Below, one piece after another: positions 293 through 30,940 of a DNA stretch of 32,000 nt. Within the stretch, counting starts at the first letter, position 1. The number at the start of each line of letters is the position of its first letter. A model generated the notes under the pieces. It was not told the DNA's origin, did no database searches, and worked only from the letters and a program-made list of their open reading frames with translations. Source of the DNA: Candidatus Scalindua sp. (GTDB taxonomy: Bacteria > Planctomycetota > Brocadiia > Brocadiales > Scalinduaceae). The position numbers and the translations under genes are program-made. Location: NCBI GenBank assembly GCA_031316235.1, contig JALDRA010000001.1, positions 3,180,001-3,212,000 of the forward strand, in the 5' to 3' direction.

Positions 293-296
293 GATT

Positions 297-8206: not shown

Positions 8207-8256
8207 TAAAACAGAATTACAGTGGATAAGGTCTAAGGGAGGAAGCTTCTCCCGCC

Positions 8257-9401: not shown

Positions 9402-9439
9402 ACATAAATTATCATTACGTAATTATTATTGGAGACATT

Positions 9440-14268: not shown

Positions 14269-14360
14269 CGGCGTTTACAATAAAAGGATAGACGGGAAAA
14301 TTGTCGAGATTAAAAGAGAATGCGGGGTCAACTACGGCAATTCAACAGAAATCCAGATCC

Positions 14361-14858
14361 CTATCTGCGGCCGAAGAATATTGCCCCGGCCCTCTCAGCA
14401 CCAATTTCACGAATCAGTTCTACTGCTGAACAGTAAAGAAGTAAAGTTGCAAGAATCACAATTTGCGAAGACCAGAAGTGCGGCCATACAACCTCATGGA
14501 TCAGATGCCGGCTCGCGCTGGGCAGGCTTCCATACTCTGATACGAGGTGGATTAATTCTTCGATACAACGAAAAAGAAGGGTAAACAGGGAGAAAATGAA
14601 TGTCTTCCAGAGTATGCTGTAAATCAGAGGTTTGTCGTGAAATATGTTAACGAACGAGAGCTTGTTGAAGATCAGGATAACCTTTGCAACGATTAATGCT
14701 CCGACAGTTGCAGTACCAGAGGCTGACAGTTTGATGCCGTATTGTTCCAGCATCAGTGCACGATTGAAAGCGATTATGTGAAACGTAATAAGGAAGAAGA
14801 TCGTCGTTGGGATTAATTCCCGGATCTCTTTTTTTAAAAATGACAGGATTTTGTTCAT
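14361..14858 (-). CDS. hypothetical integral membrane protein (about 4 TM)
   Basis: ORF 14361..14900. I prefer the ATG at 14858, with GGAGG upstream. It has several hydrophobic helices and no motif I recognise. Confidence 0.6.
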   Translation of the reverse strand: MNKILSFLKKEIRELIPTTIFFLITFHIIAFNRALMLEQYGIKLSASGTATVGALIVAKVILIFNKLSFVNIFHDKPLIYSILWKTFIFSLFTLLFRCIEELIHLVSEYGSLPSASRHLIHEVVWPHFWSSQIVILATLLLYCSAVELIREIGAERAGAIFFGRR

Positions 14859-15184
14859 CAAACCTCCAATATACAACAATACAGTCATTGCTTGTGTCAC
14901 GCAAGATTTCTAACATTGATTATGCTGTTTATTAGATTATTATGCTAATTAATACTCAAAAAAACAATAATAAATATGCACAACTGGATATCCTTACTTC
15001 CAGGTATAAAGAAATACTCTCTACAGGTTTTTTTTCGATTCGTTTTTTTAAATAGCTGAAAAGCGGTTTTTCACCATAATTTTGAAGATTCTATTTCAAA
15101 AGAATAGGTGTGAAACCTTTTAAAAAGCATGGGAAGTGGATTTTCTAAGAAGCAAAAAAAAACTTAAGAATCATATTAAAACAT

Positions 15185-15214
15185 TTGATTATTTAAATCA
15201 ACAATGTGTATAAT
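15185..15214 (+). promoter_or_regulatory. sigma70-like promoter candidate (TTGATT-N18-TATAAT)
   Basis: Read directly from the AT-rich divergent spacer 14901-15263. It lies about 50 nt upstream of the ATG at 15264. Confidence 0.25.
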
Positions 15215-15263
15215 TTTAACTACTATTAGTAACGAATAAGTTTTTTGACATTATCCCCTGTTT

Positions 15264-15530
15264 ATGCTCAATCTGTCAAGTAAACAAAAGCAGTCTGTTA
15301 GGAAGGCATCCATTCACAGGGTATTGGCCATACGCCTCGCTATTACAGCTGCCATAATATCTTTATTGCTTTCTGTAATCGTAATTCTTACTGAGCGTGG
15401 TAAAGTGGGTGAGGTAGTTCTCGATCGTGCGCTGCAGGGTGCAGCACATTTCAGTATCCAGGCGGGATACCTGTTGGATAAACCGGGATTGCCGGAAGAT
15501 GCAGACAGCTTAATTTATGTATCAAATTAA
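15264..15530 (+). CDS. hypothetical 88-aa single-pass membrane protein (tentative)
   Basis: The ORF has one TM helix (LAIRLAITAAIISLLLSVIVIL). It has no clear RBS and lies directly upstream of the DUF3313-like gene. Confidence 0.3.
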   Translation: MLNLSSKQKQSVRKASIHRVLAIRLAITAAIISLLLSVIVILTERGKVGEVVLDRALQGAAHFSIQAGYLLDKPGLPEDADSLIYVSN

Positions 15531-15548
15531 AGAAAGGAGAAACGTAAC

Positions 15549-16232
15549 ATGAGAAATGTAATGGGAACAGTTTTAATTTCAATGATAGTCTTGTTCGGGG
15601 GATGCTCTCAAACTCACCAGGCTCGCAAAGCAGCAGATTCATCCGGATTTCTTGGAGATTATTCTCTGCTTCAGGAGGGAGAAAAAGGAGAAGCGCAACT
15701 CAGATATATCAATCCTGATGCCGATTTTGCAGCATATGACAAGGTTGTGGTTGATCCTGTTTCAGTCTGGTGCAGTAAGGATTCAAAAATCCCGCAGGAA
15801 GAGCTCAATAATCTCGCCAGCCACCTGCATTACAAGATCATTGCCAGGCTTGAGAATGATTACAAGATTGTCCAGACACCGGGTCCTGGAGTAATGCGTA
15901 TTAGTGCCGCACTCACCGAGGCTAAAAAATCTAGAGTCGGGCTGAATACCATTACTACCATCGTACCTCAGGCTCGCCTCATGTCAGGTGTTAAGAAATT
16001 AGCCACAGGTACCGGTTCTTTTGTGGGTGAGGCAAGCGTTGAATGCAAGATTACGGATTCCAGCAGTGGTAAAATGCTTGCGGCAGCGATGGACCGTCGG
16101 GCAGGCGGCAAAACCCTCAGAGGATCCTTGAAGGCCTGGGATGATGTGGAACAGGCTTTTGATTACTGGGCTGACCAACTGAGCCAGAGACTTCGGGAGG
16201 CGAGGGCAGAGAGTGGATATAATGAATATTAA
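15549..16232 (+). CDS. DUF3313-like lipoprotein
   Basis: AAGGAG RBS and lipobox LFGGCS. SGFLGDYSLL...YDKVVVDPV resembles the DUF3313 N-terminal pattern as I recall it. Confidence 0.7.
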   Translation: MRNVMGTVLISMIVLFGGCSQTHQARKAADSSGFLGDYSLLQEGEKGEAQLRYINPDADFAAYDKVVVDPVSVWCSKDSKIPQEELNNLASHLHYKIIARLENDYKIVQTPGPGVMRISAALTEAKKSRVGLNTITTIVPQARLMSGVKKLATGTGSFVGEASVECKITDSSSGKMLAAAMDRRAGGKTLRGSLKAWDDVEQAFDYWADQLSQRLREARAESGYNEY

Positions 16233-16362: not shown

Positions 16363-16659
16363 TCATTTCTCGTTCATTGATTGAGCAATATGTATCCCAA
16401 CCAGCCTGGCGATGAGAATAGCGAGAAACAGTTTGCCGATGATAGCTTCTAAAATTGAAATGGAGTTTGCCGGTGCAGTCATCGGAGTAATGTCTCCGTA
16501 ACCTAGTGTGGTGAGCGTGACAAAGCTGTAGTAAACATAAAGTGATCTGCCGGCGTTGATTTGTCCTTCTGCAATGGAAAAAGAACCGGGGTGGATACTT
16601 TCCATCAGAGAATAAACAAAAGCCCACATTACTCCAATGAAGAGATAAACAACGATCAC
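16363..16659 (-). CDS. minimal two-TM potassium channel (pore-only, KcsA-like)
   Basis: Selectivity filter TLTTLGYGD flanked by two TM helices. It is 98 aa from a GTG start with no obvious RBS, so the start is uncertain. Confidence 0.75.
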   Translation of the reverse strand: MIVVYLFIGVMWAFVYSLMESIHPGSFSIAEGQINAGRSLYVYYSFVTLTTLGYGDITPMTAPANSISILEAIIGKLFLAILIARLVGIHIAQSMNEK

Positions 16660-16770
16660 ACCATATATTACATTACGGGTGACATTTTTTATTCCTGATA
16701 AAAACTCATTTACATTATTCCTTGAATAAATGTAAAAAAAATGCTGTTAAATTTATTTGTAAAGTGCTAG

Positions 16771-16856
16771 TATACTCATCTCATATTGGTTTTCGGATAA
16801 TATCCGAGATACAATTGAGCGAGTATACCTTCACCAAGAGTTGGTTTTGGTTTATA
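16771..16856 (+). repeat. TATACT-ended structured repeat, copy A (short type, right arm deleted)
   Basis: Its first roughly 77 nt align with copy B (25489-) with about 5 mismatches by my manual alignment. The right stem arm is missing, and it ends GGTTTATA. Confidence 0.8.
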
Positions 16857-16957
16857 ATGTTCTTATTCACGACTGTTTCTCTCTGAAGAAATTTTGGGGG
16901 CGCCAAGAACTGTTGATTCTGCATTCTCATTAACCACTTGTCAATAGAAAAAAGTTA

Positions 16958-18088
16958 ATGGTTGAAACCACGGTAGGGCTGAACACAGATGTTGACAAAG
17001 ACGGAGTTCTTACGATAAGAATTACGGGGCGCCTGGATTCAACATCCACGGGTGACATCTGGCAAGGGGCAATTGAGGCTCTTGAACGGGCATCGTCAAA
17101 AAAGGTCGTTCTGGATACTTCGGAGATAGATTATTGTGATGGGGCCGGGATCAGCTTACTGGTCGAAATTCAACGACGCCAGAAAAAAAGAGGCAGTGAA
17201 TTAGAGATTTCTGGCCTTCATGATGAATATCAGAAACTGCTGGATTCTTTTGACCCGCTTGAGTTCGAAGAGTCCCGTCCGGAAAAATCCAGAAAAACCA
17301 GCCTGACTGAGGAAGTGGGTCGGGCAACATTCTCAGTCTGGGACAACATCCGTTTACAGATAGCCTTCCTGGGTGAGCTGGTAGCAGCCCTTTTTCTTGC
17401 AGCCAGAAATCCAAAAGTGGTCAGGTGGAAGGATGCGTTTCTGATAGCTGAAACTGCCGGTGTTAATGCCTTTCCCATTGTCGCTCTCATCAGCTTTCTG
17501 ATAGGTTTGATCATGGCTTTTCAGGCAGCTATACCTATGAGTCAGTTCGGGGCGGAGATCTTTGTTGCAGATCTGATAGCTCTCTCAACACTGAGAGAAT
17601 TGGGTCCTCTTATGACCGCTATAGTTATGGCCGGACGTACGAGTTCAGCCTTTGCTGCCGAGCTGGGCACCATGAAGGTGAATGAGGAGCTGGATGCCCT
17701 GACAACTATGGGGCTGGACCCTGTCAGGTTTCTTGTGATAACCAGGGTGATAGCAACGCTCTTCATGATGCCGCTTCTTACTATTTTCTCCAACCTCCTT
17801 GGCATAATGGGAGGATCAGTTGTCCTGCTCTCTATGGGGTATCCGCTTTCCGCGTATGTCGATCGGATCATACTGTCGGCGGATTACGTTGATCTTCTGG
17901 GAGGCCTTCTCAAATCTCTCGCTTTTGGCTTAATAGTGGCTGGGATCGGATGTTCACATGGATTACGGACAAGGACCGGTGCCAGTGCGGTTGGTGATTC
18001 GACTACGAAAGCGGTCGTAAGCGGTATCATTATGATTATTGTTACAGACGGTCTTTTTTCAGTCGTTTATTTCTATTTAGGGATATGA
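16958..18088 (+). CDS. mlaE: STAS-domain / MlaE-family ABC permease fusion
   Basis: The N-terminal roughly 100 aa look like a STAS/anti-sigma-antagonist fold (LTIRITGRLDSTSTGDIW...VVLDTSEIDYCDGAGISLL). The C-terminal part is MlaE/YrbE-like (ELGPLMTAIVMAGRTSSAFAAELGTMKVNEELDAL). Confidence 0.88.
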   Translation: MVETTVGLNTDVDKDGVLTIRITGRLDSTSTGDIWQGAIEALERASSKKVVLDTSEIDYCDGAGISLLVEIQRRQKKRGSELEISGLHDEYQKLLDSFDPLEFEESRPEKSRKTSLTEEVGRATFSVWDNIRLQIAFLGELVAALFLAARNPKVVRWKDAFLIAETAGVNAFPIVALISFLIGLIMAFQAAIPMSQFGAEIFVADLIALSTLRELGPLMTAIVMAGRTSSAFAAELGTMKVNEELDALTTMGLDPVRFLVITRVIATLFMMPLLTIFSNLLGIMGGSVVLLSMGYPLSAYVDRIILSADYVDLLGGLLKSLAFGLIVAGIGCSHGLRTRTGASAVGDSTTKAVVSGIIMIIVTDGLFSVVYFYLGI

Positions 18089-18855
18089 AAACTGAGCAGG
18101 AAACCATAATTCGTGTCGAAAATTTGACGGTTGCATATGATGAAACGGTTATTATTGATGATATCTCGTTTGAGGTAAACAAAGGGGAAGTTTTCGTTAT
18201 CCTGGGTGGTTCGGGTTGTGGTAAGAGTACTCTTCTAAAGCAAATGATCGGTTTATACACTCCCGCCGCAGGCAGGATCCTCATTGACGGTGACGACATT
18301 GTATCTGCTGAGGGAAGTGATCGTCTTCGTATCCTCAGGAAGATTGGTGTTATGTATCAGAGCGGAGCTCTTTTCGGGTCAATGACACTGTTTGAAAACG
18401 TTCGTCTTCCTCTTGAGGAGTTTACGAATTTGAACTCCTCTGCCATGGATCTTATCGTTTTGATGAAGTTGAAGCAGGTAGGCCTGAAAGGTTATGAAAA
18501 TCATATGCCGTCTGAGCTAAGCGGGGGAATGCAGAAGCGCGCTGCCATTGCGAGAGCCATGGTGCTTGATCCGCAAATCCTCTTTCTCGATGAGCCATCG
18601 GCAGGACTGGATCCTATTACGTCGGCTGAACTGGATCTGCTTATTATCAGTCTTGCCCGTAATCTGAGAATTACGTTTGTCATAGTTACTCATGAACTTC
18701 CAAGTATTTACGCCATAGCAGACAGGGTGATTATGCTTGATAAACGTGTCAGAAAGATTGTGGCAGATGGCAGACCGCAGGATTTGCGTGATAAAAGCGA
18801 CAACCAATGGGTACGTCAGTTCTTTAAGCGGGAGGTTGCTTCAAATGTATCTTGA
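18085..18855 (+). CDS. mlaF: MlaF-like ABC transporter ATP-binding protein
   Basis: Walker A GGSGCGKST, signature LSGGMQKR, and Walker B ILFLDEPSAGLD. ATGA overlap with the permease stop. Confidence 0.95.
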   Translation: MKTEQETIIRVENLTVAYDETVIIDDISFEVNKGEVFVILGGSGCGKSTLLKQMIGLYTPAAGRILIDGDDIVSAEGSDRLRILRKIGVMYQSGALFGSMTLFENVRLPLEEFTNLNSSAMDLIVLMKLKQVGLKGYENHMPSELSGGMQKRAAIARAMVLDPQILFLDEPSAGLDPITSAELDLLIISLARNLRITFVIVTHELPSIYAIADRVIMLDKRVRKIVADGRPQDLRDKSDNQWVRQFFKREVASNVS

Positions 18856-18912
18856 TTGCTCCTAAATCGTGTCCGATACGGACTTTTACTGTTTTAAAGG
18901 AGGTTACAGCCT

Positions 18913-19917
18913 ATGAGTGCAAAGGCTAATTTTTTTAAGATCGGCATATTTGTTATCAGTGCTGCGATTATCGCGATCATTGCCATCGTTGTTTTGGGGG
19001 TCGGTACTCTTTTCAAAAAAAAGATCTTTTTTGAAACCTATATCGATGGTTCCGTCCAGGGTCTGGATGTCGGTTCTCCGGTTAAAATGCGTGGTGTTAA
19101 GATGGGCAATGTGGAGGAGATAGCTTTTGTGAAAGAGAAATACAAATTTGATCTCTCCTCAAAAGAATTTCTCAGTTATGGTCAATATGTGTTTATTCAG
19201 ATATCCATTGAACCAAAAATGGAGTCAACCGAGAAAGAGCAGAAGACATTTCTCGTAAACATGATTGCTAAAGGACTGAGAGTTCGTCTGGCTTCACAGG
19301 GGATAACCGGGGGTGCTTATCTTGAGGCGGATTTGCTTGATCCTGAAAAATATCCTCCCATGAAATTAGCGTGGGAACCCAGATCGTACTATATTCCCTC
19401 TGCACCCAGCACGATTACCCAATTTACAGAATCTGTGGAGAAAATCCTGGGAAAACTTGAGGAGATTAATGTCAAGGGAATTACAGATGGACTGGAGAAA
19501 ACTGTTGGTTCTGTGAACAAGGTACTGAATGATGTAAAGGTGGTCCGGATTGCCGAACATGCAGAACAATTGCTCGTTGAATTAGGTGAAACGAATAAGC
19601 GTCTGGAACCTCTCCTGTCTGATGCGTCTGCAACAATGGCGACAGTTAAACGGATTACCAGAGACTCAGAAAAACCTCTGACTCAAACCCTTAATTCATT
19701 AGATGAACTGCCTGAAATCTTTGTCCAACTCAAGCTGACCCTGCGCCGTTTTTCCAACCTGCTTGCCAATGAGGAGCAAAATATCGGTGTGTCTGCTGAA
19801 AATGTAAGATTGATTACGGGAAACCTTCGTGAGTTAACCGAGAACGCCAGGAGTTATCCATCACAAGTCTTTTTCGGGGGGCCGCCTCCACACTCAGCAC
19901 CGGGAGGGAGAAAATGA
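18913..19917 (+). CDS. mlaD: MlaD/MCE-domain substrate-binding protein with a long helical C-terminal extension
   Basis: AGGAGG RBS, an N-terminal TM anchor, an MCE domain (GLDVGSPVKMRGVKMGNVEEI) and a helical tail. Confidence 0.85.
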   Translation: MSAKANFFKIGIFVISAAIIAIIAIVVLGVGTLFKKKIFFETYIDGSVQGLDVGSPVKMRGVKMGNVEEIAFVKEKYKFDLSSKEFLSYGQYVFIQISIEPKMESTEKEQKTFLVNMIAKGLRVRLASQGITGGAYLEADLLDPEKYPPMKLAWEPRSYYIPSAPSTITQFTESVEKILGKLEEINVKGITDGLEKTVGSVNKVLNDVKVVRIAEHAEQLLVELGETNKRLEPLLSDASATMATVKRITRDSEKPLTQTLNSLDELPEIFVQLKLTLRRFSNLLANEEQNIGVSAENVRLITGNLRELTENARSYPSQVFFGGPPPHSAPGGRK

Positions 19918-20543
19918 AGAAGAAAATCTTTTTAACGTTACCCTTTGTCGTATGTATATTGTTCCCTTTGTTAACAGGATGTCTTAGTCTTGAAAAGAGC
20001 TATCTGGAAAAACACTATTTTGTTCTGGATGCCTCTCGTGACGGGGAGGCTGTATCCTCCGGGACAGGAGTAGTTCTTTCTGTTCGGAGATTTCAGATCT
20101 CTCCTCAATTTGAAGGTAAAAGTCTGATCTACCGATTGTCTGATTCAAGTTACGAGACTGATTTCTACAACGAATTTTTTGTTTCTCCCGCATCGCTGCT
20201 TACCGAAGAGGTTCGCCAATGGTTAAGGGATTCGGGTCTTTTCCAGAACATCGTAGATCCTTCCAGCTATCTGGATCCTTCGCACGTTCTTGAGGGCAGC
20301 GTTACCGCTCTCTATGGAGATTACCGTGAAAGTACAGTCCCAAAGGCGGTATTAGAGATACATTTTTTTCTCCTTCGTCAGGTTTCTGAGAGGTACGAAT
20401 TAATTTTTCAGAAACAATACCACAGGGAAGAACCTTTAAAAGGTAACACACCTGATGATCTGGTCAGAGGCTGGAACAATGCGTTTGAGAATATACTGGC
20501 AAAGTTTGAAACTGACATAAAAACAACTATTACCAAAGATTAG
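19914..20543 (+). CDS. ABC-type transport auxiliary lipoprotein (PqiC/DUF330-like)
   Basis: ATGA overlap with mlaD, GGAGGGAG RBS and lipobox LLTGC. Its size and position downstream of an MCE gene are typical for this family. Confidence 0.7.
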   Translation: MKKKIFLTLPFVVCILFPLLTGCLSLEKSYLEKHYFVLDASRDGEAVSSGTGVVLSVRRFQISPQFEGKSLIYRLSDSSYETDFYNEFFVSPASLLTEEVRQWLRDSGLFQNIVDPSSYLDPSHVLEGSVTALYGDYRESTVPKAVLEIHFFLLRQVSERYELIFQKQYHREEPLKGNTPDDLVRGWNNAFENILAKFETDIKTTITKD

Positions 20544-20754
20544 ATGCCAGGTTTCAGGTGTTTGTGCAGTAATAACCGATTCTGTGCATTTCAATTCCAA
20601 ACCTGTGATAGGGTTTTTCTGCACCAGGAAATTGTTTCTCACTAAAACACATACTAAAAACTCACTGTTTACAAACCTGAAAAAGTATATTACAATCCTT
20701 TGCCTCCCTCAGGGAACGGCGGCTTTGTCTCCTGTTTGTTCATTTTTTTGCATG

Positions 20755-20850
20755 TATACTAAAACCTTCCTGGTTTTAGCTTTTTCTAAAAACCAAAGCC
20801 TGCTTAATGGGTATCCCCGGACAAGGCCGAGGACTTTCCCCGGACCGGTG
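20755..20850 (-). repeat. TATACT-ended structured repeat, copy F (long type, inverted, truncated or rearranged)
   Basis: TATACTAAAACCTTCCTGGTTTTAGCTTTTTCTAAAAACCAAAGCCTGCTTAATGGGTATCCCCGGACAAGGCCGAGGACTT is collinear with 25372-25460. The right boundary is uncertain. Confidence 0.75.
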
Positions 20851-20958
20851 GTCCGTGCCATCTTCCTGAGAAAAGTGGGAAGAGGTGACGTAGATTACAT
20901 TTTACCAGAATTGACTGGATAAACCTATTTTTCGGTATACTGATTTCTCTTATATATT

Positions 20959-23085
20959 ATGAGTACAGAACACATTGTAAAGATAGCTGAAGAGCTTAAA
21001 CTTAAAAAAGAACAGGTACAGGCGGCAGGGTTGCTGCTTGATGAGGGAGCAACCGTACCTTTTATTGCCAGGTACCGGAAGGAAGCTACCGGCACACTGG
21101 ACGAGGTGGCGATTACGGCAATTCGTGATCGGTTTGCACAGCTGAGGGAATTGGATAAACGCCGGGAATCCATACTGAAGTCTCTGGCGGAAGCGGGAAA
21201 GCTTACGGATGAGTTGAAGGAAAAGATCCTGGCCGCGGAGACATTGGCAGTTCTGGAAGATCTCTATCTTCCATACCGTCCAAAACGCCGAACAAGGGCT
21301 ACCATTGCAAGGGAGAAGGGGCTGGAACCCCTGGCCAGACTCATATTTGAGCAGGAGGAGATCGATCTCCAGGAAGAGGCGGCAGGCTATATAGATGAGG
21401 AAAAGGGAGTTGCCTCGCTTGAAGAGGCACTTGCCGGAGCGCGCGATATCATTGCAGAATGGATTAATGAAGATCAGCAGAGCCGTGTCAAGATCCGTGA
21501 ACTCTTTGCTTCAAAAGGGGTTTTCAGGTCAAAGATGGTTTCCGGAAAAGAGGAGGAAGGGTTGAAATATAAGGACTATTTCGATCTGGAAGAGCCTGTG
21601 GACACTGCCCCATCTCATAGAATATTAGCCATGAGACGTGGGGAAAAAGAGGGTTTCCTTATTTTGCGTGTGACCCCGCCGGAAGAAGACGCGATCTCTA
21701 TTCTGGAGTCGCTTTTTGTCAAAGGTGAAGGTGTGGCATCAGGGCAGGTGAAGCTGTCGGTGCATGATAGCTACAAGAGGCTCCTGTCACCTTCTATAGA
21801 GACCGAGATACGTCTGGAAACAAAAAAACGTGCGGATGAAACAGCCATAAAGGTCTTTGCAGAAAACCTTCGGCAACTCTTGCTTGCGTCTTCACTCGGT
21901 CAAAAAAATGTCATGGCGATTGATCCGGGATTTCGTACAGGCTGCAAGGTGGTATGCCTTGATCGTCAGGGAAGACTTGTACATAAAGACGTTATCTACC
22001 CACATCAATCAAACGAACGTTCATCAAAAGATTCAGAAAAGGTTGCAAATCTCTGCGAAAGGTTTAACGTGGAAGCTATTGCTATCGGTAACGGGACTGC
22101 AAGCAGGGAGACAGAAGCCTTTGTCAAAAAGATTACACTGCCGGAACATATCCAGGTTGTCATCGTAAACGAGAGCGGGGCTTCTGTGTATTCTGCATCG
22201 GAAGTAGCCCGCGAAGAATTTCCAGATGAGGATATTACAGTGCGAGGGGCTGTTTCGATTGGGAGACGGCTGATGGACCCATTAGCTGAGCTGGTAAAGA
22301 TAGACCCAAAGTCTATTGGAGTTGGACAATATCAGCATGACATTGATCAGAACGCATTGAAGCAGGGGCTGGATGATGTTGTAATCAGTTGTGTGAATGC
22401 TGTCGGTGTTGAAATTAATACTGCAAGTCCGCAACTGCTCCAGTACGTTTCCGGCCTTGGGCCCCAACTTGCCAGAAACATTGTTGCATATCGTAATGAA
22501 CACGGACCACTGCCGTCCAGAGAGAAGCTGAAAAAAGTACCGAAACTGGGACCCAAGGCCTTTGAACAAGCCGCAGGATTTCTCCGCATAAGGGATGGAG
22601 AAAACCCTTTAGACAGGAGTGCAGTTCATCCTGAGAGTTATCATATAGTAGACGCCATGTCAAAAGATCTTGGTTGCTCTGTTCAGGATTTGATGGAAAA
22701 CGAGGAGATGAGAAGCAGGATCAACCTTGAGAAGTTTGTAACAGATACGGTAGGTATGCCAACCCTCCGGGATATTAAGCATGAGTTAACGAAACCTGGG
22801 CGCGATCCGCGGGAAAAGTTTGAGGTATTCAGTTTTGTTGAGGGAGTTGAAAAAATTGAAGATGTCGAGGAGGGAATGCAGCTTCCCGGAATTGTCACCA
22901 ACATAACCGCATTTGGGGCTTTTGTCGACATAGGCGTACACCAGGACGGCCTCGTACATATCAGTCAGCTTTCAAACAGGTTTGTAAAAGATCCCAATGA
23001 GGTGGTTAAGGTTCATCAGAAGGTAACGGTAACCGTGTTGGGTGTAGACCTGCAAAGGAGAAGGATCTCTCTTTCCATGAAATAG
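20959..23085 (+). CDS. tex: Tex transcription accessory protein (S1 RNA-binding domain protein)
   Basis: LLDEGATVPFIARYRKEATGTLDEV at the N-terminus, a YqgF/RuvC-like core, an HhH region, and a C-terminal S1 domain (GIVTNITAFGAFVDIGVHQDGLVHISQL). Confidence 0.95.
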   Translation: MSTEHIVKIAEELKLKKEQVQAAGLLLDEGATVPFIARYRKEATGTLDEVAITAIRDRFAQLRELDKRRESILKSLAEAGKLTDELKEKILAAETLAVLEDLYLPYRPKRRTRATIAREKGLEPLARLIFEQEEIDLQEEAAGYIDEEKGVASLEEALAGARDIIAEWINEDQQSRVKIRELFASKGVFRSKMVSGKEEEGLKYKDYFDLEEPVDTAPSHRILAMRRGEKEGFLILRVTPPEEDAISILESLFVKGEGVASGQVKLSVHDSYKRLLSPSIETEIRLETKKRADETAIKVFAENLRQLLLASSLGQKNVMAIDPGFRTGCKVVCLDRQGRLVHKDVIYPHQSNERSSKDSEKVANLCERFNVEAIAIGNGTASRETEAFVKKITLPEHIQVVIVNESGASVYSASEVAREEFPDEDITVRGAVSIGRRLMDPLAELVKIDPKSIGVGQYQHDIDQNALKQGLDDVVISCVNAVGVEINTASPQLLQYVSGLGPQLARNIVAYRNEHGPLPSREKLKKVPKLGPKAFEQAAGFLRIRDGENPLDRSAVHPESYHIVDAMSKDLGCSVQDLMENEEMRSRINLEKFVTDTVGMPTLRDIKHELTKPGRDPREKFEVFSFVEGVEKIEDVEEGMQLPGIVTNITAFGAFVDIGVHQDGLVHISQLSNRFVKDPNEVVKVHQKVTVTVLGVDLQRRRISLSMK

Positions 23086-23177
23086 CCCTGTTTGAACGAA
23101 AACTATCCATCTCCTGCGTTGCGGTAATAATTTCGTAATCCTCACGTACTTGAGTACGCTCCGGTTGGAAAAAAACA

Positions 23178-25334
23178 ATGTATGATACATTAAAAAGTGT
23201 TTTCGGTTTTCAGTCCTTCCGTCCGAATCAGGAAACCATAATAAAGAACATTCTCCAGAAAAAGGATGTTTTCGCCGTAATATCGACGGGCGGAGGCAAA
23301 TCTCTCTGTTATCAATTACCTGCTAAAATAATGGCAGGGACAACAGTGGTCATAAGTCCTCTGATATCTCTGATGAAAGACCAGGTGGATGCAGCGCTTG
23401 AAAATGGAATAGCGGCAGCCTTCATAAACAGTTCATTAAGCCGGCAGGAGATGTCAGCCGTAAACCAGAAGCTGCATAATCGTGCATTAGAGCTGCTTTA
23501 TATAGCACCTGAGCGTTTTGCAATGCCGAACTTCATCGAAGAGCTGAAAACTATTCCTCTCTCCCTCTTTGCCGTCGATGAGGCACACTGTATTTCAGAA
23601 TGGGGACACGACTTTCGCCCCGATTATCTGAGCCTGTCCAATGTAACCAGGCTCTTTCCGGATGTCCCTGTTGCAGCTTTTACGGCTACAGCAACGCCAA
23701 AGGTGCAGGACGATATTATCGATAAAATCGGACTCAGATCACCATTCATTGTCCGTGCATCCTTCAATCGGCATAATCTCTTTTATCAGGTAAAGAGAAA
23801 GAGGGAAGTGGGAGCACAGATACTGGAGTTTCTCAAGGAGTATAAAGATGACCCGGGAATAATTTATCGTACTACCCGCGATTCAGTTGTAAAGTTGTCA
23901 GAGTTTCTTATCGATAATGGTATTAAGGCATTACCCTACCATGCAGGATTGGAGGTAGATGTTCGTAAGGAGAACCAGGAGGCTTTTAGTAAGGACAAAG
24001 TGAACGTAATCGTGGCCACGGTTGCATTTGGTATGGGGATTGATAAATCAAACGTCAGGTTTGTCATCCATGCGGATTTACCGAAAAATATTGAAGGGTA
24101 TTATCAGGAAACCGGCCGTGCCGGCCGTGATGGTGAGTTGGCCAGTTGTCTCCTCTTTTTTGCCAGTCAGGACATACCGAAGATCAGGTATTTTATAGAC
24201 CAGATACCTGAAGATGAAGAGCGGTCAACTGCCATGTATAAACTGAACCAGATGGTTGCGTATGCTTCTCATTATGTTTGCAGGCGCAGGCAGCTGCTCA
24301 GCTATTTCGGTGAGGAGTATACAGCAGAAAATTGTGGGACCTGTGATGTCTGTGTCGATATGGTTGAAAAGGTAGATGCGACAACTGATGCGCAGATAGT
24401 AATGTCAGCTATTTTGCGGACAGACCAGCGTTTTGGGATCAATCATATTGTTGATATAGTAATAGGAGCCAATACGAGCCGTATCCGTGAATTGAACCAT
24501 GACGGCATTAAAACCTATGGTGCTGGTAAGCATAAAGACAAAAATCATTGGAGATTTATTGTTGACGAACTCCTGGCACAAGAGGTAATTGTTCAGGATG
24601 GAGGCCAATATCCCGTATTAAATCTAACAGCAAAAGGTTATAACATCCTCTATGGTCGGGAGACCATTTCGGCGTTAAAGAGAGAAGAGGTGAAAAAGAG
24701 GAAGAAGACTCTCAAAGGTCTTCAACTTGAGTCCTATGATGAGGTTCTTTTTGAGAGACTTCGTCTTGTCCGGATGAAATTTGCAGAGGAGCAGCAGGTG
24801 CCGCCCTACATAATCTTTTCAGACAAGGCCCTCCACGAGATGTGCGCCTTTTACCCTGTAACACCGGCAGACATGAAAAAAATCAACGGTGTGGGAGATG
24901 TCAAACTCGAAAGATATGGGAACGAATTTATCAGTGCTGTAAAAAGATATCTGAACGAAAACCCCGGCATTTCAGTTCCCGACACACAGTCCTTGTATCA
25001 ATCCGCTGATAAGCCGCAACGCAGGACAATGGGTGGCACGGTTGAGACAACCGGTAAACTTTTTAAACAGGGATTCTCGATCCATGAGATTGCAAAATCG
25101 CGGAACCTTACGGCAGCTACCATCTCCGCACACATTGAAACTCTGATAAGGGATGGCTGTGAAATTGAAATAGACCGACTCATTGACGCTGCAAAGCGAA
25201 AGGAAATTGAAAAGCTCTTTCAAGAACTCAAGACTTGGAATACCGGTCCGGTAGTTGAACATTCCAGAGGCAGGGTCAGCTATGACGAAGCAAAATTTGT
25301 TCGGGCATATGTACTTCGAAAGTCAGTGCAATAA
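23178..25334 (+). CDS. recQ: ATP-dependent DNA helicase RecQ with an extra C-terminal helix-turn-helix-like extension
   Basis: TGGGKSLCYQLPA, DEAHCISEWGHDFRPDY, VATVAFGMGIDKSNVRFVIH, QETGRAGRDG, a Zn-binding cysteine cluster (CRRR...CGTCDVC), an HRDC region, then about 120 further aa. Confidence 0.95.
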   Translation: MYDTLKSVFGFQSFRPNQETIIKNILQKKDVFAVISTGGGKSLCYQLPAKIMAGTTVVISPLISLMKDQVDAALENGIAAAFINSSLSRQEMSAVNQKLHNRALELLYIAPERFAMPNFIEELKTIPLSLFAVDEAHCISEWGHDFRPDYLSLSNVTRLFPDVPVAAFTATATPKVQDDIIDKIGLRSPFIVRASFNRHNLFYQVKRKREVGAQILEFLKEYKDDPGIIYRTTRDSVVKLSEFLIDNGIKALPYHAGLEVDVRKENQEAFSKDKVNVIVATVAFGMGIDKSNVRFVIHADLPKNIEGYYQETGRAGRDGELASCLLFFASQDIPKIRYFIDQIPEDEERSTAMYKLNQMVAYASHYVCRRRQLLSYFGEEYTAENCGTCDVCVDMVEKVDATTDAQIVMSAILRTDQRFGINHIVDIVIGANTSRIRELNHDGIKTYGAGKHKDKNHWRFIVDELLAQEVIVQDGGQYPVLNLTAKGYNILYGRETISALKREEVKKRKKTLKGLQLESYDEVLFERLRLVRMKFAEEQQVPPYIIFSDKALHEMCAFYPVTPADMKKINGVGDVKLERYGNEFISAVKRYLNENPGISVPDTQSLYQSADKPQRRTMGGTVETTGKLFKQGFSIHEIAKSRNLTAATISAHIETLIRDGCEIEIDRLIDAAKRKEIEKLFQELKTWNTGPVVEHSRGRVSYDEAKFVRAYVLRKSVQ

Positions 25335-25371
25335 GAAATTACGATTTACAAAGACCCTGCAGAATTTATCA

Positions 25372-25627
25372 TATACACTAAAACCGGTCTGGTTTTCGGT
25401 TTTTCTGAAAAACAAAGCCTGGTTAATGGTATCCCCGGACAAAACCAGACGCCGAGGACTTGTACTCGCTCCGGTTTTTCTCGAATTTTATACTCATTTC
25501 ATAATGGTTTTCGGATAAAATCCGAGATAAAATTGAGCGAGTATACCTTCACCAAGATTTGGTTTCCAGTAAAACCGAAAACCAAATCGGTTTTAGTATA
25601 TCCGAAATCCAGTATGAGATGAGTATA
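25372..25627 (-). mobile_element. TATACT-ended structured repeat, copy E (long type, inverted), interrupted by copy B
   Basis: Joining 25372-25490 to 25601-25627 gives a sequence collinear end to end with the reverse complement of copy D (30051-30188). Confidence 0.8.
25489..25600 (+). mobile_element. TATACT-ended structured repeat, copy B (short type, 112 bp), inserted inside copy E
   Basis: TATACTCAT...GGTTTTAGTATA. It differs from copy C at about 9 of 112 positions by manual alignment. It contains a TCGGAT/ATCCGA hairpin and a 10-bp stem (25556-25565 with 25579-25588). Confidence 0.85.
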
Positions 25628-25803
25628 TTTTACTTGTTTTTGCATGGTATCATGTGTAGCATAACGTGCTCAAAAGAGGTACCGTGAGACTGCAGATCCT
25701 GCACGTGATGACAGACATTTGGCAGAGCTGCTTGATAATGGTTGCATTTGCCCCGGGGCAATGGAAGATATATTTTATTTTTTCCGATGGAGATTAATTA
25801 AAT

Positions 25804-26496
25804 ATGAATATTTTAACAAAAAGAGGAAGTTGTTATGGAGTTGTTTTTGCGCTGGTTTTGGTATTTACCCTGCATGGTTGTAAAACGGCAAGCAATACCG
25901 TTATCAACGAACCCTCAACCCTGCAATCCGCATCCACACAGGCCAGCACGGAAAAAAGCGGTATTGCGGCGAAAGATGGCGGACTGAAGGAGAAAGAAGA
26001 GATTGTTACGGAAAAGAGTGACGGTGAAGGACCAGAGAAATCCAACCAGACCCAGAAAAAATCCAGGGAAGACCTTGAGAAGTATCTCTTCAATAAGTGG
26101 TCTGGTGCCTTAGGGCATGGTGGGGTTTCCGGGGGAAAGCCGGCGGAAGAGGAAGAGACTGAAAAAGAGAATGCTGACGAAAAGGTTGCTGAAGCGGAAG
26201 AAACGAAATCTTTTCCGGAGCTTGAGAAGATGGTGGTTGGTAAGTGGTTGAACGAGAAAGAGACAGAGTCAATGCAATATTTTGATGATAAAACTATAAT
26301 CATTAATAATGAAAGTACCAAGCAAACGATAAAGGGGACTTTCAGATTTACTGAAAAAGATAGTCTGACAGTCGACTTTAAGGAAGGTTTTTTGAAAGTA
26401 CCGTCAATGTCCTTCAAGATTACGATTTCCGAAAATGAGCTTACGCTGATTGGCTTAACGGATGGTGTGCCGACAATATATAAAAGAGTCAAATAG
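25804..26496 (+). CDS. hypothetical lipoprotein with an E/K-rich linker and a small beta-rich C-terminal domain
   Basis: Signal plus lipobox (FTLHGC), with GGAG upstream. An equally long antisense ORF exists but it is Ser-rich and low-complexity. Confidence 0.6.
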   Translation: MNILTKRGSCYGVVFALVLVFTLHGCKTASNTVINEPSTLQSASTQASTEKSGIAAKDGGLKEKEEIVTEKSDGEGPEKSNQTQKKSREDLEKYLFNKWSGALGHGGVSGGKPAEEEETEKENADEKVAEAEETKSFPELEKMVVGKWLNEKETESMQYFDDKTIIINNESTKQTIKGTFRFTEKDSLTVDFKEGFLKVPSMSFKITISENELTLIGLTDGVPTIYKRVK

Positions 26497-26719
26497 TGGT
26501 GATCAGGCCACAGAAGTAACTATCCCTGCAGCTAATGAGGAGATATGAGGTTTGCGGTCAAAGTATTGCTGATAAAGTAATTTCAGATAGGGGTCTATTG
26601 GAATTGCCTTGACATCATATAACCACTGAAATAAGATATTTTTTATCAATACTTACCGAAGCATTAAAAGCGGAGACTTACGTGTGACACCGGGGGGGAA
26701 CTCACTGTCAATAGAGTAA

Positions 26720-26831
26720 TATACTCATCTTATACTGGATTTCGGATAAAATCCGAGACAAAATTGAGCGAGTATACCTTCACCAAGATCTGGTTTCCGG
26801 TAAAACCGAAAACCAGATCGGTTGTAGTATA
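26720..26831 (+). mobile_element. TATACT-ended structured repeat, copy C (short type, 112 bp)
   Basis: Full-length counterpart of copy B, with a 10-bp stem (26787-26796 with 26810-26819). Confidence 0.85.
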
Positions 26832-26844
26832 TGTTGTAGTATAT
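26821..26844 (+). repeat. 12-bp tandem duplication (GTTGTAGTATAT x2) of the right terminus of copy C
   Basis: 26821-26832 and 26833-26844 are identical, read directly. Confidence 0.9.
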
Positions 26845-26919
26845 TATGAATCTCACATAGCAACACCATCCTTTTAAGTTTACAATGGGTGGTATTTATT
26901 CAATTTTTCAAATAAGATT

Positions 26920-29892
26920 ATGGCAGAGGATAAACGAATCTTGACATTGGAAACAAGACCAAAAAAGAGGAGATGGCCCGTAATAACGGGAATTTCTGTC
27001 GGTGCCGTATTTGGTATTACAGGGATACTTGTCCTGCTCATTCCCACATTTGTTTCTACTGATATGGCGAAAAGCAGGATTATTCGTGCCATGGAAACAA
27101 ATCTGGGGCGCAAAGTGGAAGTTGATGATATCAGGATGAGCTGGTCAGATGGGGTCGATGTGAGAAATATCCTTATTAAGGAGAGGGAGGGTATCCCGGG
27201 TGATGCATTTATCAAGGTAGACAGGTTCTATTGTGACATACAGTTTTTTCCTCTCATCAGAAAACAGATACGGATACGGGAACTTATCATAGATAACCCT
27301 GAAGTAGTTGTGCACCGATATAAGCAGACGGTTTCTGATGGTGAGAGTACGACGCCAGAATCGAAACAGCCATCTGTGACAGAGAGGGTGCGCGTTCCCG
27401 AAGTCGCTGAACAACCAGTTGAAAACGATGCACTGTCGGCACTGGCTCTTCCCTTTGTCCTTGATATTGAATTAAAAGCCAAGATCAATAACGGAACATT
27501 CACATTCGTTGACCACCGGCTGCGTGAAAAAACCGTAATTCACGATTTTAATACAACGCTGAATATAGAGTCTCTGGACAAACCGATCGAACTGAAAACC
27601 GCCTTCGATATTGAGACAAAAGGGAAGACGGAACACGCGGATATCTCCCTGGATGTTTCATTGTCAAAAGATGGAGAAGTGAATCCCAGATATGCACGGG
27701 GAGCATTCAAGGCTGAGACGGGTTTTGCAAAAGCAACTGCGGATTTCGATATGGCAAGTTTCAGTGGTGAAGGTGGACAGGGCTTTGAATTTATTTCAGA
27801 TATTGATACGAAGGGGTTGACGGAAAAACTTGCAGGAATATTGGGCCTGCCTGAGGGGCTGCAGGTGGAGGGTGTCTGCAGTTCAAAAATTACGGCTCGC
27901 GGGAGTCTGGATAAATTGATAAATGTCGATGGGCGTACAGATTTTGTGAACCTCAATGTTTCGGGTGGACCCTTTAAAGATAAACCTGTTAAGGATCTCA
28001 ATATTAAACTGCTTCAAAGTGCTGATGTAGACGTGGTAAACGATCGAATCCAGATTTACCGGTTCAGTCTTGAATCTCTTTTTGCCGAAATGGGGATTAC
28101 GGGGCTTGTTACTGATCTGAGAAGTGCCGGAAATCTTGATCTGAAGATGTTCTTCCAGTGTGACATAGCCGGGATGGCAGGAGCATTAGGGGGGCTTTTA
28201 CCCCTGGATGGGGAAATTGCGGGGAAGGTACAATCAAATGTAACTCTTCAAGGCCAGCGTAACAAGCCGAGGATAGATGGCAAAACTGTTATTAAAGATC
28301 TGTTTCTCAAGAAGGAATCGTTCGGGCCTATTACCGAACCGGAAATTCTCATTACCCATAATGCAACATTAGATGCCTTTGACAAGAGTATCATCATCAG
28401 AGAGATGGGTTTGAGCACCAGTTTTGTAGAATTCGGATCTTCAGGTTCGCTTAATCATGAAAAAGAGGCTGACGTAAATGTGATTCTATCGGTAAAGAAT
28501 CTGGAAAAACTTGTGGGCAGCCTTGCAGGGATTGTGCCGCTGCCTCAGGGGTTTACGGTCAGCGGGAAAACGACTACTGAAATGAAGATAAAGGGCAGCA
28601 GAGAAAAAGGTGTCAGGATCAGTGGGAACACCGTTCTGGAAGGCGTTAATGTGGCCGGTGGTCCTCTTGAAAAGGCCAGGATTTCCAATCTCAACATGGA
28701 ACTTGTGCACGTTCTCGACCATAGCATGCCTAAAGACGAGGTAAAAATAGAACAACTGGATATTGATTCAGATTTTTTAACCATGAGATCGAAGGGCGGA
28801 GCAAAAAATTTGTCAGATGACATGGATGTTGATTACGGGGCTTCCCTGAACCTGAATCTTGAAAAGTCGACAACGCTGTTTTCAGATTTCTTTCCTGCAG
28901 GCATGTCGATGGCGGGTAAGGGGATTGTCGATTTCACCTTACGGGGGAAATTACCGGTAGATGACGCAATGTATGATGATCTGGTTTTTCAAGGAAATAT
29001 GTTCATGGAGAAGGTTGAATATATTTCAAATAATATAACAGATTTGAAAGCTCAGTTTCGTCTTGATAACGGGATTTTTAACACAGACGGTTTCACTTTT
29101 GATCTCAATGACGGAGAGGGGAAGATATCTGCTAAGGCAATTCTCTCGGAAGAGCAACCTTCATCAGAGTTTCGTCTTGATTTGATGGATGTCCTTATCA
29201 ATCAGAAGATAGACACGCTGGGGAAATTTATACCAAACCTTTCTCAACATGAAGGAGAGGTGTCCGGTACGCTGAATATGGATATTGCGGCACAGGGAAA
29301 AGGGCTTAACTGGCAAGATGAATTGAGCAGGACTCTCAGTGCTGAGGGGAATATCAGTATAAAGAATGGTTTAATAAAGGGTGACAAGGTTCTCTCCCGA
29401 ATTATCAGCGACGAGTCCTTTAAATTTGAGGAGCTGACCACACCGGTCAGGATTAAAGACGGCAAAATATTCACGGATGATCTGCAGATTAATGGAAGTA
29501 AACTTGACATCGGTTTGTCAGGGTGGACTGCTTTTGATGGGCGGATAGAATATACGGTTGAATCTGATGTTTTAGCGAGATACATCGGTGGAGATGCAGA
29601 GAATATTCTTGGTATGTTAGGAAAGGGTGTCCATCTGCCAATCATCATTACCGGCACGGTGAATAAACCAAAGGTTGCTCTTAAACTGCCGAAGTCTAAA
29701 GAAGGTTTTGGAGATCTCATAGAAGGAATTATGGGAAGTATAGGGAAATCGAAAGAGGGCGGTAAGGGAAGTGAAGGTGTTGATGGAGCGCAGGGAGAGT
29801 TAAAGACCGGTGAATCCTCAGATGAGAAAAAACCAGAAAAAAGCAGGACAGAAGAAAAGGTAGAAAAACTTCTTAAAAGCCTGTTTAAATAG
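26920..29892 (+). CDS. AsmA-family (AsmA/TamB-like) envelope protein
   Basis: N-terminal TM anchor, then an AsmA-like start (KSRIIRAMETNLGRKVEVDDIRMSW...IRIRELIIDNPEVVVHR). A long beta-rich body is followed by an AsmA_2-like C-terminus (GKIFTDDLQINGSKLDIGLSGWTAFDGRIEY) and a K/E-rich tail. Confidence 0.75.
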   Translation: MAEDKRILTLETRPKKRRWPVITGISVGAVFGITGILVLLIPTFVSTDMAKSRIIRAMETNLGRKVEVDDIRMSWSDGVDVRNILIKEREGIPGDAFIKVDRFYCDIQFFPLIRKQIRIRELIIDNPEVVVHRYKQTVSDGESTTPESKQPSVTERVRVPEVAEQPVENDALSALALPFVLDIELKAKINNGTFTFVDHRLREKTVIHDFNTTLNIESLDKPIELKTAFDIETKGKTEHADISLDVSLSKDGEVNPRYARGAFKAETGFAKATADFDMASFSGEGGQGFEFISDIDTKGLTEKLAGILGLPEGLQVEGVCSSKITARGSLDKLINVDGRTDFVNLNVSGGPFKDKPVKDLNIKLLQSADVDVVNDRIQIYRFSLESLFAEMGITGLVTDLRSAGNLDLKMFFQCDIAGMAGALGGLLPLDGEIAGKVQSNVTLQGQRNKPRIDGKTVIKDLFLKKESFGPITEPEILITHNATLDAFDKSIIIREMGLSTSFVEFGSSGSLNHEKEADVNVILSVKNLEKLVGSLAGIVPLPQGFTVSGKTTTEMKIKGSREKGVRISGNTVLEGVNVAGGPLEKARISNLNMELVHVLDHSMPKDEVKIEQLDIDSDFLTMRSKGGAKNLSDDMDVDYGASLNLNLEKSTTLFSDFFPAGMSMAGKGIVDFTLRGKLPVDDAMYDDLVFQGNMFMEKVEYISNNITDLKAQFRLDNGIFNTDGFTFDLNDGEGKISAKAILSEEQPSSEFRLDLMDVLINQKIDTLGKFIPNLSQHEGEVSGTLNMDIAAQGKGLNWQDELSRTLSAEGNISIKNGLIKGDKVLSRIISDESFKFEELTTPVRIKDGKIFTDDLQINGSKLDIGLSGWTAFDGRIEYTVESDVLARYIGGDAENILGMLGKGVHLPIIITGTVNKPKVALKLPKSKEGFGDLIEGIMGSIGKSKEGGKGSEGVDGAQGELKTGESSDEKKPEKSRTEEKVEKLLKSLFK

Positions 29893-30050
29893 TGCCTGAA
29901 CGGAGACCATACGGTTGGAAGGAAACTGTCCGGATACAAGGGAGGCTTCTTGCATGACCGGAACGAACTTGTGTCCCTGAGAACTACGGAATTATTACAG
30001 CAACCCGGCAGGTGGGCAGTCTGCGTTCAGCCACTTGATAAATTTACATC

Positions 30051-30188
30051 TATACTCATCGTATACTGGTTTTCGGATAAAACCTGAGAAAAAAACGGAG
30101 CGGGTAAAGTCCTTGGCGTCTGGTTCGGGGAAAGTGCCCGGTGCCTTTTGTCCGGGGATACCGGCAACGAGGATTTGGTTTTAGTATA
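30051..30188 (+). mobile_element. TATACT-ended structured repeat, copy D (long type, 138 bp)
   Basis: It shares the 5' roughly 30 nt and the 3' GGTTTTAGTATA with copies B and C. It carries the GC-rich module ...TGTCCGGGGATACC... that copies E and F have in reverse complement. Confidence 0.85.
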
Positions 30189-30421
30189 TCAATCCAACCG
30201 GCTGCAACTCCTCAGTGCAGTGTTTTCATCTTATAACTCTGCGGGACAGGTTTAATTTCCGTATGACAGTTCCTTCCGTACCGGTACCAACCCGCAGGAT
30301 GGATTTTTCAAGAACGGCGGCTTCCCGGCAGAAACCACAGAGGTCGAATTCAGAGATATATTAACAGTACCAACTTACTACAAACCGGGAATCTGCGCAT
30401 GAGCAACCCAAATAAAAGAAC

Positions 30422-30940
30422 ATGAACTGGTTAGATGATACTTTGATAGCGTTACTTGTGCTTGGAACCATATCTGGGCTTATTTCCGGACCGCTCTGGC
30501 AGGTCTACAGAACCCTTGCCGTGATTATTTCTGTGGCGGTTTCCCTGGTATTTCACACAATAGCACGTTCTGTTTTTCAGGGCTTGTTTGATCATAAAGC
30601 AGCGAATATATCAGCGTACGCAGTGGTATTTTTTGCCGCTTTGATGCTTACCTATGTACTGGGAAGCATATTCAAATCCGTGCTCACAACAAGAAAATTT
30701 GGATTCGGTGGCAGGGTTTTAGGAGGAGGGGTTGCACTCCTGAAGACAATCATATTATGCTGTATATTCATATCAGGTATTTCATACATGGGAAATAAGA
30801 GAACAGATACAATGATAGAAGATTCGACCATCGCAAAAAACTTTAACGAAGTCTCTCGGACCGTTGTTTCAAAGTTTCCCGCAGAAATCAAAGGGTTTTC
30901 GTTTCGTAAGGATACGGATAACATTGAGGACAGTTGGTAA
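30422..30940 (+). CDS. cvpA: CvpA-family membrane protein (colicin V production protein-like)
   Basis: MNWLDDTLIALLVLGTISGLISG... is a typical CvpA N-terminus. It has 4 TM segments and is 172 aa. Confidence 0.8.
   Translation: MNWLDDTLIALLVLGTISGLISGPLWQVYRTLAVIISVAVSLVFHTIARSVFQGLFDHKAANISAYAVVFFAALMLTYVLGSIFKSVLTTRKFGFGGRVLGGGVALLKTIILCCIFISGISYMGNKRTDTMIEDSTIAKNFNEVSRTVVSKFPAEIKGFSFRKDTDNIEDSW

Follow-up and report, generated by a model that had tools for sequence, protein, structure and literature searches.

A modular family of intergenic repeats in Candidatus Scalindua with the features of IS630-type miniature transposable elements

A 32,000-nucleotide stretch of the Candidatus Scalindua sp. 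genome (GenBank assembly GCA_031316235.1, contig JALDRA010000001.1, positions 3,180,001 to 3,212,000; hereafter the window) contains six copies or fragments of a short repeat that begins with TATACT and ends with AGTATA. The evidence presented here makes it very probable that these repeats belong to a family of TA-duplicating, IS630-type MITEs (miniature inverted-repeat transposable elements) that occupy intergenic DNA in marine anammox bacteria (Candidatus Scalindua). Assignment to the IS630-type class was made because a TA dinucleotide is duplicated at the site of insertion and because the ends match those of an IS630-family insertion sequence (IS) at 20-22 of 26 positions. This agrees with the IS630/Tc1-mariner-like origin that an initial annotation, made from the sequence of the window alone, had raised as one of two candidates. 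With lower confidence than for the class of element, we regard a 1.1-kb IS630-family IS of the same genomes as the most likely mover of the MITE.

The family is dispersed beyond the window, as the initial annotation had proposed. An exact-match scan with the 26-nt left-end pattern, covering one genome per GTDB species in 8-kb stretches, matched at least 120 stretches and found the family in several Scalinduaceae genomes. All counts of ends and elements given below were taken from ~0.95 Mb comprising 120 of these MITE-bearing stretches (designated L001-L120), which contain 203 left ends and 145 right ends; elements that are intact and shorter than 260 bp number 136. The window is not one of these stretches. 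Among the matches listed, 119 of the 120 stretches are located in four Scalinduaceae/Planctomycetota metagenome-assembled genomes (MAGs), namely Candidatus Scalindua sp. SCAELEC01 (60 stretches, with 165 ends in the sampled stretches), Ca. Scalindua sp. RBC_AMX3 (42 stretches, 126 ends), Scalinduaceae bacterium CBDCUS01 (15 stretches, 42 ends) and a Planctomycetota MAG (2 stretches). The single Bacteroidales match (L079) was rejected as a family member since it shares the 26-nt pattern with no internal sequence, and was treated as either a chance match or the end of an unrelated IS630 element. Plasmid and phage collections yielded no match to the family. The elements are non-coding and predominantly intergenic, with 117 of the 136 located wholly outside stop-to-stop open reading frames (ORFs) of at least 150 aa, and such ORFs hold 69% of the sampled bases.

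The termini are imperfect 26-nt inverted repeats of the form TATACT-N10-TGGTTTTCGG, in which the TATACT and TGGTTTTCGG blocks are invariant. The consensus left end is TATACTCATCTCATAATGGTTTTCGG and the consensus right end is CCGAAAACCAAATCGGTTTTAGTATA; as inverted repeats they are identical at 18 of 26 positions, which upholds the earlier description of imperfect inverted-repeat ends. Five occurrences of the left-end pattern (TATACTCATNNNATANTGGNTTTCGG, 26 nt) were counted in the window, against 0 expected from 100 shuffles, and the right-end pattern occurs three times where shuffles likewise give an expectation of 0.

Evidence for duplication of TA comes from a search for empty sites, in which both flanks of each element were joined and compared with other loci. 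This analysis identified four clean paralogous empty sites. Each has a single TA at exactly the point that TATACT...AGTATA occupies in the filled site, so that the TA is present once in the former and twice in the latter. The hosts of all four insertions are other repeated sequences, the uninterrupted copies of which act as empty sites (window copy B in copy E versus L009/L063; L067 versus L094/L077; L055 versus L069/L076; and L040 versus L007). For example, copy B entered the TA of ...TTTCGGA-TA-AAAT... within copy E: L009 and L063 read ATTT-TA-TCCG where the window reads ATTT-[TATACT...AGTATA]-TCCG, and E minus B aligns end to end with the uninterrupted ~139-nt copies at L009 and L063. B and E had initially been listed as separate items; both are real, but rather than overlapping they are nested, B having entered E at a TA. 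TA duplication is also compatible with two orthologous comparisons across species (L038/L111 and L120/L020), which are noisier.

Comparison with SCAELEC01 also shows that element positions differ between related species, as evidence of mobility since speciation. The spacer between asmA and cvpA is 497 bp in the window versus ~65 bp in SCAELEC01 (L054), where copy D is absent, and upstream of mlaE that genome has nothing corresponding to copy A. Conversely, a copy that the window lacks lies beyond the K+ channel gene in SCAELEC01.

Copies of the MITE have themselves been invaded by other elements. At L075:4440-6277 a MITE is split inside its X1 cassette (described below) by an IS110-family element with two ORFs (Pfam DEDD_Tnp_IS110 1e-23, Transposase_20 6e-15). 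Repeats are known targets of IS110-family elements, but L075 is only one instance. At L070:390-2605 there is a three-level nesting in which the MITE contains a 182-bp MITE of a sibling family (TATACCCAT... ends) at a TA, which in turn contains a group II intron (RVT_1 7.5e-41, GIIM 1.3e-18).

The candidate partner IS was found because orphan left-end-like sequences (TATACTCATTACGAAATGGTTTTAGGTATTTGTACC) were noticed near contig edges. In four SCAELEC01 contigs they lie ~100 nt from the edge, and one further occurrence is inside CBDCUS01, a long-read assembly. In CBDCUS01, L058:3-503 is the end of an ORF for a DDE_3 transposase, of which 166 aa at the C terminus are present (Pfam 1.5e-26); the stop codon of this ORF falls inside the terminal repeat TATACTCATTACGAAATGGTTTTAGG, and its closest database relatives are IS630-family transposases of Planctomycetota and Brocadiaceae. 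A metagenome scan with the L058 fragment led to full-length marine elements of 1,121-1,122 bp (L126, L129 and others); the initial annotation had proposed to look for a longer transposase-encoding element with the same termini. The L129 contig is exactly one such element, and the protein encoded by L126:2-1122 is 92% identical to that of L058. A single ORF is present in each, of 347 aa in L126 and of 343 aa in L129 (L129:70-1101), and the IS ORFs match Pfam HTH_29, HTH_33 and DDE_3 as well as NCBIfam transpos_IS630, with 207 bits against a cut-off of 100. The right ends of the IS (L058, L126, L127, L128 and L129) agree with the MITE left end at 20-22 of 26 positions and with the MITE right end at 18-20 of 26.

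We propose that a 343-347-aa IS630-family transposase, with two helix-turn-helix domains and a DDE_3 domain, would be supplied in trans by a 1.12-kb IS located elsewhere in the genome. This transposase would bind the ends of the MITE and excise the element, which would then be pasted into a TA dinucleotide with duplication of that TA. Both the trans-mobilisation by this transposase and the cut-and-paste mode of movement are inferred from sequence.

A number of observations weigh against this assignment of the mover. The left ends of the IS are a poorer match, agreeing with the MITE left end at 17-20 of 26 positions and with the MITE right end at 15-17 of 26. No deletion derivative of MITE size that includes internal IS sequence, and would so link the two directly, was found; the similarity is limited to ~26 nt at the ends, and no intact IS copy adjoins a MITE in the ~0.95 Mb of MITE-bearing stretches. 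In Scalinduaceae records only end fragments of the IS were seen, owing to locus boundaries and contig breaks, and the full-length copies were supplied by marine metagenome contigs without an assigned origin; that the window's own genome contains the IS is assumed from its relatives. Finally, no transposition event was observed, and the proposed mover is deduced from the similarity of ends.

The poor match of the IS left end and the lack of an intact IS in the sampled MITE-rich loci of the MAGs could also indicate that the family is an orphan MITE comparable to the Correia repeat. In that case the element would have retained an IS630-like form after its cognate transposase was lost, and its similarity to the IS ends would reflect shared ancestry only. 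The condition of some related IS genes fits such a history, with one broken by a frameshift (L122) and three truncated at their 5' ends (L121, L123 and L124), one of them beside an IS21 element. However, fragments of the IS with a matching end are present in the same MAGs, situated at contig edges, which is where a short-read assembly would leave a multi-copy intact IS, and full-length copies with intact ORFs are present in marine metagenomes. Furthermore, there are many near-identical MITE copies, with identity within a genome of up to 100%, which suggests recent activity. We therefore consider an orphan origin to be very improbable for the family, with some chance of it left for the window's own genome.

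Correia ends start with TATA and duplicate TA, and no cognate transposase is known for Correia, unlike the Scalindua family for which a candidate IS630 partner has been found. The terminal sequences of the Scalindua family appear to differ from the Correia repeat, which is a lead and not a test. The Correia/NEMIS elements of Neisseria resemble the Scalindua family in having 26-bp terminal inverted repeats (PMC3049150), and also in having short and long forms, a high copy number, an intergenic location and hairpin-forming transcripts (PMC10969869). Promoter, IHF-site and RNase III functions have been demonstrated for Correia (PMC10969869), whereas in the Scalindua family any such functions would be hypothetical.

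Several other candidates were considered in the search for an autonomous element. Left/right-end pairs 1-3.5 kb apart (120 loci) were rejected as autonomous copies, as they are composed either of unrelated genes between two MITEs or of MITEs interrupted by the IS110-family element (L075) or the group II intron (L070) described above. An all-against-all BLASTP comparison of 970 ORFs from the sampled loci revealed no multi-copy transposase family. For defining both ends of the IS, L122 (Brocadiaceae) was set aside for its frameshift at an A-run and its lack of a recognisable left end, and L121, L123 and L124 were set aside for their 5' truncations. The frameshift in the Brocadiaceae MAG (L122:2544-3576) splits an IS630 transposase gene through one additional A in an A-run, which reads GCAAAAAGCCC as compared to GCAAAAGCCC in L121. 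The gene either is a pseudogene or contains a site of programmed frameshifting.

We also observed a sibling family of MITEs that are 181-182 bp long and have TATACCCATYRCAAAWTGGTTTTMGG as their ends (L010:4156-4337, L053:6545-6726, L057:5114-5295 and L097:5204-5384). One sibling end runs on with AGGAATTTCT, resembling the left end of the IS (AGGAATTCTCG), and this family may be more closely derived from the same group of IS. Hidden Markov model (HMM) profiles indicate that it is absent from the window; it is present in other genomes.

The family described here is also highly modular. The 136 intact elements range from 57 to 254 bp with modes at 112-113 and 139-140 bp. The initial annotation had distinguished a short (112 bp) and a long form, and both of these exist, but they are not the only size classes. 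The 57-nt minimal form consists of the two ends alone, the 112-nt form of the ends plus a central segment, and the 139-nt form of the 112-nt form with a 27-nt cassette, X1 (AAGTCCTCGGCGCCTTTTGTCCGGGGA), between GAGTA and TACC. X1 corresponds to the extra GC-rich module that had been noticed previously. Forms of 161-235 nt have additional hairpin cassettes, likewise GC-rich, that occupy the loop of one or other subterminal hairpin, without duplication and always immediately 5' of TAAAA. Optional GC-rich cassettes at three fixed internal sites thus generate many size classes, from 57 to ~235 bp. The loop cassettes (X2-X4) occupy the apical loops of both subterminal hairpins, with the same type present at both sites of one element. 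One cassette, seen in L074:1923-2122 and other long copies, has the form CCTGCCTGTGCG-loop-CGCACGCAGACAGG. Searches with blastn-short indicate that the GC-rich cassettes are nearly confined to MITE copies and always have the same orientation.

These cassettes raise the question of whether the family could instead consist of REP/BIME-like palindromes, spread by a Y1 transposase (RAYT or IS200/IS605-type) acting on single-stranded hairpins; the initial annotation had named Y1 TnpA/RAYT as its second candidate mover. REP/BIME sequences are linked to Y1 RAYT transposases, the Scalindua elements are hairpin-rich, and cassettes X2-X4 resemble REP hairpins and are inserted without duplication directly 5' of TAAAA. 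However, REP/BIME sequences are not known to have terminal inverted repeats or target duplication, whereas the Scalindua family has both, along with termini that match an IS630 DDE element. There is also no Y1 transposase among the multi-copy ORFs of the sampled loci, and cassettes that are almost exclusively found in MITEs, and in one orientation, are not behaving as a free REP family. A Y1 mover is thus scarcely credible, and that part of the initial annotation is not supported. Mosaics of BIME/REP and ERIC from enterobacteria do share with the Scalindua family the presence of optional modules at fixed internal sites, an intergenic location and a richness in hairpins, but it is only the internal cassettes of the latter that are REP-like.

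A more speculative idea, which we hold to be unlikely, is that the family exceeds an ordinary MITE in two respects. The X2-X4 cassettes could represent a second, independently moving hairpin layer with the MITE as its sole landing pad, or else the product of a hairpin-extension process of a kind undescribed for bacterial MITEs. The identity of 98-99% between copies from species whose genes differ by 12-23% could reflect recent horizontal spread of the IS and MITE among Scalindua species that occur together, or selection at the level of the host.

The degree of conservation and the folding of the elements bear on a further alternative, namely that the copies are in the first place not selfish mobile DNA but functional structured RNA or DNA signals under selection, such as small RNAs, terminators, attenuators or protein-binding sites. 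Coding DNA of the window is 77-88% identical to its orthologues in SCAELEC01, so that the window belongs to a different Scalindua-like species, whereas 112-nt copies compared between Scalinduaceae genomes have a mean identity of 87-93% and a maximum of 98-99%. This difference suggests that the element is under constraint or has recently been exchanged among species. Each terminal repeat gives rise to a subterminal hairpin through pairing of its inner half with adjacent sequence, with TTTCGGAT-AAA-ATCCGAGA as the left hairpin and GATTTGGTTTCCGG-TAAAA-CCGAAAACCAAATC as the right one. The latter exists in two alternative sequence versions, and pairing is kept in both. Copies B and C have far stronger folding than shuffled controls, whichever strand is taken (z -4.3 to -7.6), in accordance with the interior hairpins reported earlier. 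Strong folding, maintained pairing, high identity across species and an intergenic location all speak for a functional signal.

Other properties argue against a functional signal as the basis of the family. Copies A-D are on the plus strand and E and F on the minus strand (both orientations had been noted initially) while all neighbouring genes are on the plus strand; positions differ between species, and copies are often truncated, nested or interrupted. An RNAalifold analysis of 41 short-form copies detected compensatory change in just 2 of 23 predicted pairs, with a covariation term of -0.27 kcal/mol, and with almost no covariation the RNA-structure argument was dropped. Scans of the region found 30 promoter-like sites (consensus scan) versus 22.9 +/- 5.8 in shuffles and 11 terminator-like sites versus 12.4 +/- 4.0, so neither is enriched; two promoter-like matches that overlap elements A and E were given no weight. 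The initial annotation had matched the repeats to no named bacterial family, and Rfam 15 gives 0 matches at gathering thresholds across the window, and at E<=1 the interval 16500-30500 contains only an unrelated weak snoRNA match (28822-28881), which leaves the elements with no Rfam match even at that threshold. A functional-signal origin is consequently improbable, though secondary effects of individual copies on neighbouring genes are possible.

With an IS630-type MITE as the preferred interpretation, the Scalindua family can be placed among other known systems. RUP (repeat unit of pneumococcus) of Streptococcus pneumoniae, which reportedly duplicates TA, is unrelated in sequence and has a Firmicutes rather than a Planctomycetota host. 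Like the Scalindua MITE, RUP is a non-coding element of ~107-112 bp with many copies and with ends that resemble an IS630-family IS of its host (PMC3049150). RUP has been called "simple" (PMC3049150), whereas the Scalindua family is modular with GC-rich cassettes and many size classes. Nezha from cyanobacteria has a different host and sequence, and is likened to the Scalindua family by description and not by alignment. Its proposed partner, ISNpu3, belongs to the IS630 family. As in this study, Nezha is a MITE with a partner IS (ISNpu3-like) that was inferred from end similarity, and the RUP/IS630-Spn1 and Nezha/ISNpu3 partnerships were both proposed on this same kind of evidence (PMC3049150). 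The eukaryotic Stowaway elements, which are derived from Tc1/mariner, share TA duplication, terminal inverted repeats, small size and nesting with the Scalindua MITE. Stowaway is mobilised in trans by DDE/D transposases of the IS630-Tc1-mariner group, which is the mode that we propose here, but the Scalindua host is prokaryotic and a bacterial IS630 element, one with a DDE_3 domain, is the candidate partner. The searched literature contained no paper pairing Scalindua with MITEs; its sole paper on Scalindua and IS630 addresses IS630 in other anammox genera with no MITEs, and the host taxa in a 2024 review of prokaryotic MITEs do not include Planctomycetes. This family therefore extends IS630-type MITEs to a phylum without prior report in the searched literature, a comparison that has ISfinder outside it.

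All six copies of the window (Table 1) were recovered at, or within a few bases of, the positions originally reported between 16.7 and 30.2 kb, with end patterns in agreement with HMM profiles that were built solely from copies of other genomes. These profiles identify exactly six loci and have no match in positions 1-16000, consistent with the initial failure to find any copy in the first 16 kb. A repeat finder run on the window independently returned a 113-nt direct-repeat family at 16771, 25489 and 26720, the first 44 nt of which recur at 30051, together with inverted matches tied to this family at 25373-25426, 20755-20807 and 25599-25629.

Table 1. Copies of the MITE in the window, with matches to HMM profiles derived from other genomes.
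Copy	Position	Strand	Composition	HMM span	HMM E-value	Further basis
A	16771..16856	+	Short-form left end and left half; right end missing, truncated after ~78-86 nt	16771-16848 (positions 1-79 of 112-nt profile)	7e-22	Exact left-end pattern
F	20755..20850	-	Truncated; right end, right subterminal hairpin and X1 GC-rich cassette, without left end	20755-20847 (positions 45-139 of 139-nt profile)	3e-15	Inverted repeat I3
E, right-hand part	25372..25488	-	Right end with 2-nt insertion (TATACACTAAAACC), X1 cassette and centre of a ~142-bp element split by B	25375-25627 (whole of E)	1.4e-25	Inverted repeats I1, I2, I4
E, left end (TATACTCATCTCATACTGGATTTCGG)	25601..25627	-	Left end, cut off from the rest by B			Exact left-end pattern on minus strand
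B	25489..25600	+	Intact 112-bp short form at TA inside copy E	25489-25600	3.9e-36	
C	26720..26831	+	Intact 112-bp short form	26720-26831	1.5e-33	
D	30051..30188	+	138 bp; both termini and enlarged X1 cassette; inner right arm deleted	30051-~30197	8e-17	

All six window copies are intergenic. They are flanked by a gene for a K+ channel, the operon of an Mla-type ABC transporter, tex, recQ, a gene for a hypothetical protein, an asmA-like gene and cvpA. Copy A is located 100-187 bp upstream of the mlaE-like gene, copy F between the Mla operon and tex, and copy C between a gene for a 230-aa hypothetical protein and the asmA-like gene. Because copies sit directly beside housekeeping operons, those immediately up- or downstream of Mla, Tex, RecQ, AsmA and CvpA genes may affect transcription or mRNA stability, a suggestion based on their placement in the sequence. 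Pfam scans of 20 window ORFs detected no transposase, as had been stated initially. Two mechanically called ORFs on the plus strand, 20584-20922 (112 aa) and 25255-25518 (87 aa), overlap copies F and E/B, respectively; these are probably spurious but might be taken for genes in an annotation. Directly after copy C, at 26833-26844 (region 26821-26844), there is a tandem duplicate of the last 12 nt of the element (GTTGTAGTATAT), which could have arisen by slippage or be the remnant of a second end.

The initial annotation had attributed much of the long spacers of this region to the MITE copies. A second, unrelated dispersed repeat family that had been overlooked is present in the spacers as well, at 23089-23172 and 29893-30043. 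Members of this second family are long imperfect palindromes of ~135-150 bp with ends like GTGTTTGAACGAAAAC...GTTTTGGTTCAAACAC. The first of the two, in the tex-recQ spacer, is a half copy with 61 BLAST hits in Scalindua loci at identities of up to 92%. The second, just after asmA, is a degenerate copy with 35 BLAST hits at ~72%. Copies of this second family are also insertion targets of the MITE, as seen at L067.

Among marine anammox bacteria Candidatus Scalindua is the main lineage, one known from enrichments and metagenomes only. We infer that the MITE copies lengthen spacers, add strong hairpins to read-through transcripts and break short-read assemblies; the fragmentation of Scalindua genomes assembled from short reads would be explained by a MITE of high copy number and at least two other families of small repeats. 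The finding is not one that would surprise a specialist in mobile elements, but it is useful for Scalindua genomics. The MITE provides a ready marker for strain-level insertion polymorphism, and a MITE profile would improve annotation since spurious ORFs overlap copies. The clean pairing of IS and MITE is also offered for study of trans-mobilisation.

The effect of both repeat families on assembly can be seen in the sole public contig that encodes the exact RecQ protein of the window. This 2,305-nt short-read contig (L206) corresponds to window positions 23138-25442, starting inside the second repeat family and ending inside MITE copy E. As its two ends fall within the two families, both of them break assemblies of this organism.

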